The notes beneath the pieces were generated by a model, which saw nothing but the letters and a program-made list of their open reading frames with translations, was not told the origin of the DNA and made no database searches. DNA of 64,000 bases, taken from contig CM120646.1 of NCBI GenBank assembly GCA_051362555.1, forward strand, positions 4,526,001-4,590,000, read 5' to 3'. Shown here in pieces: positions 6,059-9,000 of this stretch (its first letter is position 1; the number at the start of each line of letters is the position of its first letter). Origin of the DNA: Lingula anatina. Its lineage: Eukaryota > Animalia > Brachiopoda. A program made the position numbers and the translations under genes.

Positions 6059-9000
6059 ATGGAATTTAGTGAGTAACTGTTTTTAAGTTCATGACACCTG
6101 CAAAAGTATGGTCAGCTAAATAGTTTGGCATCTTTAGAACTAATGTTATCCTCATGTTTATAATGTGTTATGAATAGAAATGGTATTTTGGATAAAAGGT
6201 TTTTTATGTGTTAAGATTCACAGCGCTGATTTTAAGGACAATGGCTGTGGAAACAGACTTTCATTGAAATTAACTAAAGATCTTTACCATTTGTATTTTC
6301 AGTAACCACTTTGAAGATACACTCTTGTCATCACGGTTTTTCTCTGCTGTTATTAATACATCTGATTGCTTGTCATCTAGGCGGTGAGATATCTTGAAAC
6401 TAACGCCATGCTAAACAGATAACATTCGTTAAATAATTTATCTCAACGTTTTTTAAGAATAGTAAAAGCTAAATCGGTTCAAAATTTTTATTAAAATATT
6501 GAAATACTTCTAAATTATAGGCTTAGTACTTTATATGTTTCTAATTGGTTACTTTGTACAAATGTTACCTTACTGCTGTAAAGGATATTTTCACTATTGT
6601 TTGATTTTGAACGATAAATGTGTGGGTATTTCAGTCAATTGTCAGCTTGCTACATTCAGTAAAGAGGATATCTTTGTGGCCAACACACCGCTAGTCATTC
6701 AGCTTACTGCTGGGAATCCATTTTCATTGTGGTGCAACTTCAGTACATCGAGAGATTTGTCAGCCGTGATTTTTAGTATTAAATGGATCAAGGATGGTAT
6801 TCCATGGTGCACGGCTGTGTCAGCTAAAGTGAATGCGACGTCAGAGGAGTGTGTTAGAAGAGGAATAACTCCAAGCAACGTGTACAATCCTAGTGGTACA
6901 GAGAACTTTCAACTCAATATTCCAATGGCGAACATATCTGACAGTGGGAACTACACGTGTGCCATGAACATTCTAGGCGATCACAAGGACATCACCTTAC
7001 CAACAATGATTATTGTTTTAGTCAAGGCAGGTAGGCGCCTAGCTAGCCATAGTGACATATTAACCTTTCGGAGCAAATGACTGAAGGCATCTGGGGCCTG
7101 ATTCACAACATACCATACGTTTGACTTTGGGATAAATGCTTAGCCTTTCGAGATTTGATTAGTAAGTTGTGCTTCACAGAGAATCCTAAAGGCCGCTTAC
7201 TTCGGTGTTTGTTTTTTTAAGTAGGCCGCTAGGGCAGATTGCCAAAATACTGATTTTATGCTAATGTGAAACAGATGCTACACATAATTTGATATGGGGC
7301 ACATTTTTCCCTCTTTTGAATTCTCCCAGTTTTATAATACCGTAACATATACCCATAATTCTAAAACCCTTATACATTCCAATCATAATATTCAAACTTC
7401 TGTCATAAAAACCAAGGAGATCACCAAAAACGCATATCATGTCTGTGAATTAGTTCCTTATATACATTTTGATCTTTTTCATGCCTGTTGTGGGTTTTTA
7501 AGGTCACGTAGCGCACGCCATTAAGTTTTTACCAAGCGACAAGACTTTTAACATATAAAGACAGTAAGGGGGCGTCCACTATGAGTTAGGTCGCAATAGG
7601 TGACTTCATGGGGCTCTCGTTGAATGCAATAAGATAAACAGATTCACACGCCCCCTTCTGTTGAGTAAAATACAACAAAGCTGGTGATTATACGAGTGTG
7701 CTGGAAACTACAGGAGGAGTGTCAGCCTGTTAATCCGATTACATTCAGCGAGAATCATCTAATGGTTAGTGGGCAATAGGTTGAAACATTTATTTTGAAC
7801 CATTCTCATGTTGAACGGCTCCTCAGAGGCTGTTAAAGAGATTTTACCCTCAAGTTGCCTCTCGTTTCAACTCTCAACTGTATGTCATTTGATACATTGA
7901 TTATTTCAATTTTACATATTTAAATTTAATGACTTCACATATATATTTTCTGAACTCTGTATTATAATTAAATTGTATTTTAATATATTACATAGTCAAT
8001 AGTTGTATTTTTCACATCAAAAATGTTAATGGTTTCGTGTTCTGTGTTTCAGAACTCCGACCGTTATTAATTTCAGGTGTGTTTTCTTTAAAAAAAGGAA
8101 TTTTATTAAGGCATTATATAACTTAACCTGTCACAAATGATAAAATCAGCTGATAGACTGTTGATGCAATATCAGTTGTTTGAAAAGCTTTAAGAAAAAA
8201 CACTTGATTTAAAACCATCGCTCATATATTTGGTCATTTCAGTGATAAGCCAGACTGTTACACAGGTCACCCCGACCACCTCAACTGCTATGATCGTAGA
8301 CATATTTGCCGGGACGCCGTTTTCATTGTGGTGCAACTTCAGCACATCAAGAGATTTGTCAGCCTTGAGTTTTAGCGTTAAATGGCGCAAGAATGGTAAT
8401 CCATGGTGCACGGCTGTATCAGCCAAAGTGAATAAGACGAGAGAGGAGTGTGTTAAAAGAGGCATAACTCTAGACAATGTGTACAATCCTAGTGGTACAC
8501 AAAACTTTCAACTCAATATTCCAATGGCGAACATATCTGACAGTGGAAACTACACGTGTGCCATGAATATCCTAGGCGATGCCAAGGACATCACCTTGTC
8601 TACAGTGACTATTGTCTTAGTAAGGGATACAAAGGAAGGTATGCGTATTAAATGCTCTGAATATAGCGAGTTTTGTGATAGTTACTTATTCATTACATAT
8701 TTATATTACTAATTTTTCTTCACAAATAGTTTCATACTTTTTTACAATCATTAAAAACCTTCTCACATCTCTTTCGGTATAATGCCACTGCATTTTAATT
8801 CCTAACTTATTTTCAATGGAATTGCAATATGAAAAACATGTTGACCTCCTTTCAGATACCTCTACTGAGGCTACACTGATTGGATCATCTGGTACGTAGA
8901 AATAGTTTTTTACACTAGTTCATATTTAGAATGAGCTATTATACGCACAAGTCAATCGCATGATTACCCTGGCGTATTGTATTTTGTCTTTCAAACTTTT

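Follow-up and report, generated by a model that had tools for sequence, protein, structure and literature searches.

A directional trace of exchange between head-to-head Ig receptor genes in the second Ig exon of a predicted receptor tyrosine kinase

Conversion between paired receptors usually yields two sequences that are alike and that carry no direction, and for the pair SIGLEC5/SIGLEC14, a fusion allele exists. The available text of PMC5701461 describes SIGLEC11 and SIGLEC16 as head-to-head genes for inhibitory and activating Ig receptors, which lie about 9 kb apart and whose N-terminal Ig exons have been homogenised by repeated, fragmented gene conversion, and argues that, among Siglecs, the binding surface of an activating receptor follows that of its inhibitory counterpart. 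In Botryllus, FF and FcoR are head-to-head Ig-superfamily receptors, with ITIMs in one partner, that have been duplicated and lost as pairs, according to the available part of PMC12582321, the main text of which, to that extent, has 0 mentions of "gene conversion" and "exon shuffling". In the available part of PMC4888836, one-ended SDSA and FoSTeS/MMBIR template switching are reviewed as repair in which homology at one end primes synthesis, a short stretch is copied off a template close by, and the original template is then resumed. In our literature survey, which covered mainly main texts outside the subscription journals, no head-to-head pair of an ITIM receptor and a receptor tyrosine kinase was found in an invertebrate or brachiopod.

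The DNA analyzed here is a 64,000-nt stretch of Lingula anatina (GenBank assembly GCA_051362555.1, contig CM120646.1, positions 4,526,001 to 4,590,000 of the forward strand), hereafter the window, in whose coordinates all positions are given. It contains several head-to-head pairs of Ig receptor genes, at least four and perhaps five, whose two sides are designated A and K. The gene models are as follows.

6059-13224, plus strand: K1, modelled as 15 GT/AG-bounded exons in a single open frame, 714 aa
6635-7030, plus strand: first Ig exon of K1 (Ig1), with a K-type start, phase 1-1
8243-8638, plus strand: second Ig exon of K1 (Ig2), phase 1-1, open over 131 codons
5843-5894, minus strand: A1 leader exon, head to head with K1
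5261-5623, minus strand: A1 Ig exon, phase 1-1
1726-1888, minus strand: last exon of A1, with two ITIM-like motifs, LHYADL and VEYAAV
27972-28472, minus strand: A2 Ig exon, the comparator for within-pair conversion
29502-29906, plus strand: single Ig exon of K2, with an Ig1-type start and an Ig2-type end, a further comparator
44048-44440 and 42536-42928: the two Ig exons of A3 (A3a, A3b), both A-type, opposite a broken K-type exon at 46019-46226
leader near 52.3 kb: A4, opposite a mucin-Ig exon at about 53897-54569
58865-59227, minus strand, opposite 60033-60418, plus strand: the 59/60-kb pair, 95.4% identical

The K1 product reads in the order leader, Ig1, Ig2, stalk, TM segment, and tyrosine kinase with intact HRD, DFG, and APE motifs; its TM segment has no charged residue in the middle, and it has its own tyrosine kinase. 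The A2/K2 pair at 28.8-29.2 kb has the same layout as A1/K1, with 433 nt between the start codons as compared with 165 nt. ITIM-like tails lie at 1.8, 19.6, 40.0, and 57.2 kb. By motif reading only, A1 and A2 have two ITIM-like motifs each and the kinase motifs of K1 are intact, and the A-side receptors are likely to be inhibitory, a label that is motif-based throughout.

Several further features of these genes were observed. A putative second cytoplasmic exon of A1 (2350-2439, minus strand) has stops inside and is in phase 0-0, so that the frame is open without it. In A2, the Ig exon has a repeat expansion of VVTVET-type units at 28295-28432, where A1 has a deletion (heads of 501 and 363 nt, respectively), and an intron contains a long insert at 21420-23760 that is non-LTR retroelement-like by eye. 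A transposase-like remnant, also recognized by eye, lies at 14300-17600 between K1 and the A2 tail. In the tail of A3 (39990-40153, minus strand), the two ITIM-like motifs do not lie in the same frame, which suggests a frameshift. An inserted repeat that is also present at 53269-53524 interrupts the Ig exon of A4 (about 51710-51975) past the initial ~40 nt, and degenerate exons at 46 kb and 61 kb contain stops. In K2, the penultimate exon (37460-37558) is 99 nt compared with 100 nt in K1, breaking the frame of the kinase C-terminus, the exon before it (37059-37204) is partly repeated in tandem, and the intron preceding the penultimate exon is 3.5 kb longer; the frame break represents either a pseudogene or an assembly indel.

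Among 172 proteins compared, the best match of K1 residues 346-713 was Lingula anatina XP_013415521.1 ("Cad96Ca-like"), with 70% identity and the next at 52%; the model of this protein has no Ig domain. XP_013413611.1 and XP_013415522.1 ("FGFR3-like") have a layout of V-Ig, stalk, TM, and kinase with one Ig domain, the Ig identity being 29-31%; the names "Cad96Ca-like" and "FGFR3-like" are automatic annotations. A HMMER search over 1.84 billion representatives gave 51 matches with no close relative, the best single-domain Ig match among the 51 being the Lingula Ig-kinase XP_013413611.1, and word-index protein searches with Ig2 and one kinase exon gave no match. The nearest Lingula kinases, XP_013415521.1 and XP_013415522.1, have consecutive accessions, a hint that the reference genome contains a related cluster.

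The Ig cores were 96.2% identical between A2 and K2 and 95.4% identical in the 59/60-kb pair, and 79-83% identical between pair 1 and pair 2. A core tree grouped the exons by pair, with bootstrap support of 100 for A2 plus K2 and of 99 for the separation of the pair-1 exons from all others, and the A2/K2 tract does not extend past the core, ending where the A-type donor lies. Judging from these comparisons, within-pair homogenisation by gene conversion is general in this cluster. Because the Ig core is common to all copies and closer within pairs, only the ends and polarised sites are informative on the origin of an exon. Tandem Ig exons are also present in A3 and near 61 kb, the second Ig exon of A3 carrying only 53 nt of upstream intron.

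The original prediction was that the second Ig exon of K1 had been captured, inverted, from its inhibitory partner gene. The features ahead of the exon are as follows.

8173-8242, plus strand: A1-like intron tail with splice acceptor, an inverted copy of A1 5693-5624, 57/70 identical
5624-5693, minus strand: A1 intron tail, the counterpart of 8173-8242
8219-8242, plus strand: exact 24-nt inverted match to A1 5624-5647, 0 mismatches

The reverse complementarity of 8219-8242 to A1 5624-5647 was exact, as predicted, and far beyond chance. In the window, the 24-mer occurs once on the plus strand and once on the minus strand (5624-5647); the second-best site on either strand, the A2 acceptor, has 5 mismatches, and none of the K-type Ig acceptors lies within 8 mismatches. 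The predicted A1-like upstream intron was also found, with its start at 8173 instead of 8190. In ungapped comparison, 8173-8242 matched A1 at 57/70 positions, K1 Ig1 at 22/70, K2 at 18/70, and the other A-type exons at 26-36, and beyond these 70 nt upstream, the likeness to A1 drops to 0-3 per 10 nt; the 5' boundary of the tract is sharp, at about 8172/8173. With gaps, A1 matched at 57 positions and the seven other acceptors at 39-43, and a pseudo-exon at 46 kb matched at 40/70. The same intron likeness, looked for upstream of the K-type exons as a test set with the prediction, was absent (18-22/70 ungapped vs 57/70, and likewise lower with gaps). Local alignment of the whole 1.2-kb intron to A1 gave a score of 88, with a shuffle maximum of 36.5 (z 19.9).

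The 13 mismatches of the tract are all outside its last 24 nt (P=0.002), and this mismatch-free end fits either selection on a used acceptor or later short conversion. At 7033-8172, nothing similar to K2 or other K1 Ig-flanking introns was detected (z up to 2.4). Two short AT-rich matches between the K1 intron and A introns in reverse orientation (z 3.4 and 5.2) were rejected as compositional.

The A-like character continues into the exon.

8243-8478, plus strand: A-like front of Ig2, with an A-type start and, at 8377-8478, 7 derived sites common with A1

The first 20 nt of Ig2 match A1, A3a, A3b, and A4 at 17-20 positions, A2 at 15, and the three K-type exons at 9-12. This A-type start, present in all five A-side exons and in none of the three K-side first exons, is unlike the K-type VFCQF, the translations being as originally described. 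The signal-peptide tail was considered as a direction marker and discarded as uninformative, because A- and K-type exons both begin with V-x-S/C-Q. At 28 sites polarised with A2, K2, A3a, and A3b as outgroups, Ig2 had 7 derived states in common with A1 and 0 with Ig1, and A1 and Ig1 had 3 in common; the seven are all at or before 8478 (P=0.009), although the difference between 7 and 3 was not significant (P=0.34). At the 34 sites where Ig2 sides with one neighbor, the ratio of A to K was 16:6 up to 8478 and 3:9 thereafter (best-split permutation, P=0.015), the first 8 sites all being A1. Core identity was 88.4% for Ig2 and A1, 87.1% for Ig2 and Ig1, and 88.1% for A1 and Ig1; relative to A1, Ig2 shows differences at 12% of core sites, plus two indels. 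The A-like tract runs from 8173 to between 8392 and about 8480.

The rear of the exon and the intron that follows have a different affinity.

8627-8638, plus strand: K-type 12-nt 3' extension of Ig2, of K2 length, with 9/12 letters as in K2 (shuffle P=0.011)
8639-8855, plus strand: K1 intron 3' of Ig2, in which 8693-8855 aligns to K2 30475-30649

The length after the Trp codon is 310 nt in Ig2, as in K2, compared with 298 nt in A1, A2, A3a, and A3b and 301 nt in Ig1. The downstream intron of K1 aligned with that of K2 over 163 nt (score 60.5, z 7.6) and gave no alignment with the A1 downstream intron (z 1.0). The A-type donor position is AT in Ig2 and in K2, and around the donor, 14/20 nt match K2 and 8/20 match A1; the donor of Ig2 begins with GTATG, as in A1 and A2. 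In the rear half, Ig1 is favored at 9 of 12 sites. The K-type signal at the 3' end is short (12 nt, 9 matches) and A-rich, and none of the 28 polarised sites joins Ig2 with Ig1 by a derived state, so that a K origin of the rear core has no direct support among them. Ig2 is, as read from these comparisons, best described as a mosaic exon whose acceptor and front are A-type and whose rear is K-type, the second boundary being diffuse and inside the core.

We consider it probable, at roughly 60%, that Ig2 was made by an inverted copy from the A1 lineage over a duplicated kinase Ig exon, via homology-primed repair, either gene conversion or template switching that started in the common Ig core; one-ended SDSA and template switching are in principle capable of this. 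A break in a K-type Ig exon would have invaded the near-identical inverted A core 2.6 kb off, and synthesis would have continued outward past the homologous part, taking in the A-type start and a further 70 nt of intron, before its far end was rejoined at 8172/8173 in the absence of homology. A tandem Ig duplication may have come first, or a single template switch may have achieved both, and the data do not separate the two. The likely outcome is a kinase that has two V-type Ig domains, of which the second is preceded by a functional acceptor derived from the A side. The shape of the tract, whose only sharp boundary lies in the intron and has no counterpart toward the 3' end, supports this reading; against it, 7031-8172 bears no vestige of a duplicated K intron, although one is expected under either version. 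The flow is from A to K because the A-type start is found in 5/5 A-side exons and 0/3 K-side first exons, and because the A2 acceptor, too, aligns with the final 33 nt of the tract. Thus, on the distribution of the A-type start and the intron tract, the inverted flow of sequence from the inhibitor side to the kinase that had been proposed is supported.

An unlikely alternative is that a two-Ig kinase was ancestral to K1 and K2, that K2 lost the exon by tandem recombination, and that the A1 likeness was renewed by conversion; this keeps the A-to-K flow, makes the capture older, and partly overlaps with the repair reading. K2 has no second Ig exon, as had been stated: tblastn detected 29534-29896 alone, with nothing above chance in the next K2 intron, and the missing exon may reflect loss rather than the ancestral state. 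An ancestral two-Ig kinase agrees with the single K2 exon, which combines an Ig1-type start with an Ig2-type end as such a deletion yields, with the decay of K2 (99-nt penultimate exon vs 100 nt, frame broken), with the dS of 0.29 between Ig2 and A1, which is no younger than the K1-K2 kinase dS of 0.235, and with the presence of three versions of the Ig2 downstream intron in DNA run X1. However, the K2 intron is without an Ig remnant, and the 57/70 matches of the tract to A1 far exceed the 44/70 between A1 and A2, with a core dS between pair 1 and pair 2 of 0.46-0.55; the tract therefore postdates the divergence of the two head regions.

The original prediction as made, in which a whole A-type phase 1-1 exon was inserted inverted together with some upstream intron and the K-like end is a coincidence or a result of later conversion from Ig1, appears doubtful to us. 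Although the derived sites (7 with A1, 0 with Ig1), the GTATG donor of A1 and A2, and a core identity slightly higher to A1 (88.4%) than to Ig1 (87.1%) are what it expects, the A1 downstream intron is absent (z 1.0), the length after the Trp codon is that of K2, the donor position has AT with 14/20 matches to K2 vs 8/20 to A1, and the rear half is Ig1-like at 9/12 sites. Whole-exon phase 1-1 shuffling is thus not upheld, because no A1 downstream intron follows and the 3' length, extension, and downstream intron are K2-like. Classical exon shuffling would give a symmetric phase, breakpoints in introns with donor flanks on both sides, and a domain new to the recipient, and Ig2 shows only the first of these three. 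It is in phase 1-1, like Ig1 and the stalk exons, but A1-like intron is present upstream only, and K1 already had a paralogous Ig exon with 87% core identity. Reverse flow from K1 Ig2 to A1 or an assembly chimera is highly improbable, because, although two sequences alone are directionless and adjacent inverted near-repeats are prone to misassembly, all five A-side exons have the start type and the tract aligns to the A2 acceptor, the 12% core difference and two indels from A1 are incompatible with a read-level copy, and both flanks are reproduced by read-derived contigs with 0 differences.

The donor was examined with such contigs from DNA runs, of which X1 and X2 belong to one study and X1 may be the assembly's own sample; paralogues outside the window are seen as read-derived contigs only. 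Ig2 retains ~33 nt that are missing from A1 and is without 9 nt that are present in A1. In one X1 contig, which spans 8236-8438, the 9 nt and the 33 nt are both present, and with 18 differences this contig is nearer to the Ig2 front than A1 is; X1 and X2 also contain an A1-like copy with the 33-nt gap. Present-day A1 is therefore not the literal donor, since Ig2 keeps ~33 nt that A1 lacks and has a closer relative on a DNA contig. The donor is the A1 lineage, i.e., an A1 ancestor before the 33-nt loss or a close paralogue, and the Ig2-A1 dS of 0.29 indicates that the event is old.

The stretch 8040-8202 is carried by contigs of X1 and X2 and 8589-8920 by X2, both with 0 differences; the left contig across 8173 extends 30 letters into the tract, the bridging threshold being 31. 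X1 and X2 each have a further contig, with two variant bases, that accounts for exactly 17 letters of the bin 8160-8189 and so starts at 8173; this hints at a second copy with the tract but another upstream intron, or at an allele. Another X2 contig is like the Ig2 front and has, past 8296, 24 unlike letters that are not found in the window; it is possibly an interrupted copy or allele of Ig2. X3 and X15, from two other studies, contain A-type starts and Ig cores and leave 8160-8219 and 8580-8920 uncovered at 84% likeness, a gap that proves nothing; the same holds for 8297-8309, which X2 leaves uncovered. A 1563-nt contig of X3 has 27 letters of K1 intron (8122-8148), fewer than our 30-letter caution threshold, followed by the Ig core (8378-8544), the A1-like tract between them being absent at 84% likeness; if real, it would represent the unconverted state. 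X3 and X15 contain diverged Ig pieces only, and X3 and X14-X17, with the same species label, contain 0.01-0.06 of the sampled words over 5200-13300, compared with 0.92 in X1 and 0.79 in X2; this low share could reflect strong haplotype divergence or another taxon under one label.

As a domain, Ig2 scored 28.4 bits against Pfam Ig_2 (cut-off 27) and 25.8 against V-set (cut-off 26). C30, W47, D99, G101, and C105, representing the B-strand Cys, the C-strand Trp, and the D-x-G-x-Y/H-x-C motif, are invariant in 9 Ig exons. The top matches of its structure model (mean pLDDT 67.8) were mostly V-type Ig domains (TM 0.38-0.52), and in this model, part of the 33-nt stretch kept by Ig2 forms the first strand (residues 16-21). 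Three of nine RNA runs, in a partial reading of about 6%, 6%, and 25%, contained no reads belonging to A1 or K1; they gave 116 reads with partial fits and no joints, with repeats near 3.2, 7.7, and 11.7 kb, and those at 11984-12025 were from the transcript of another kinase. Ig2 is probably included in K1 mRNA, as suggested by its open frame, in-frame indel, and conserved Ig residues. Private synonymous and non-synonymous changes were 8:10 in Ig2, 7:8 in A1, and 8:11 in Ig1; a selection test on Ig2 only was not significant (P about 0.07 at kappa 2.8, with transition bias allowed), and in neutral runs of 18 substitutions, the frame stays open in about 48%.

All three ectodomain exons are in phase 1-1, so that skipping either Ig exon keeps the frame. 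When the K1 leader is joined to Ig2, the in-frame signal-peptide junction is V-I-S-Q, the same as in A1, and the acceptor type of Ig2 is, in the A genes, used directly after the leader. An internal start before Ig2 was also considered and dropped, the preceding intron having no leader-like exon. Ig1 and Ig2 might conceivably be alternative heads, with K1 switching by splicing among its own head, the inhibitor's head, or both in a previously undescribed invertebrate ITIM/RTK system, but we regard this as a rather improbable arrangement.

The second Ig exon of K1 is a real, directional trace of exchange between partners, that is, a known process with an unusual outcome. The tract provides polarity, from the inhibitor side to the kinase, because an A-specific start and intron were carried over, and the case implies that a splice acceptor can be relocated by such repair, which can thereby contribute to the assembly of a receptor with two domains. 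Taken by itself, the exon is a modest case of molecular evolution; the cluster of ITIM/kinase pairs is more surprising and a stronger lead. The mechanisms of SDSA and FoSTeS/MMBIR are reviewed in the available part of PMC4888836 in other organisms, whereas the K1 case is reconstructed from a footprint that has diverged by 12-19%.

With regard to known systems, Botryllus FF/FcoR differs from the A/K pairs in that the available part of PMC12582321 describes no kinase partner and in that A/K partners carry a near-identical Ig domain. SIGLEC5/SIGLEC14, as far as the available source extends, are likewise paired inhibitory and activating receptors with common ligand-binding domains, but they are vertebrate, adaptor-coupled, and without a kinase domain, unlike the A/K pairs. 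The A/K pairs appear by analogy to work like SIGLEC11/SIGLEC16, outside that family. As in that pair, A1/K1 and A2/K2 are adjacent, with ligand-binding exon cores 88% and 96% identical, and similarity within pairs is higher than between pairs, with tract boundaries. Siglec-16, in the available text, relies on an ITAM adaptor for signaling, whereas K1 has a tyrosine kinase of its own, and while the SIGLEC11/SIGLEC16 conversion described there lies within homologous exons, the K1 tract has a non-homologous end and involves an extra internal Ig exon. The K1 case fits the idea that activating Siglecs track their inhibitory partners and carries it over to a cluster, likely from a brachiopod, with a receptor tyrosine kinase as the partner.
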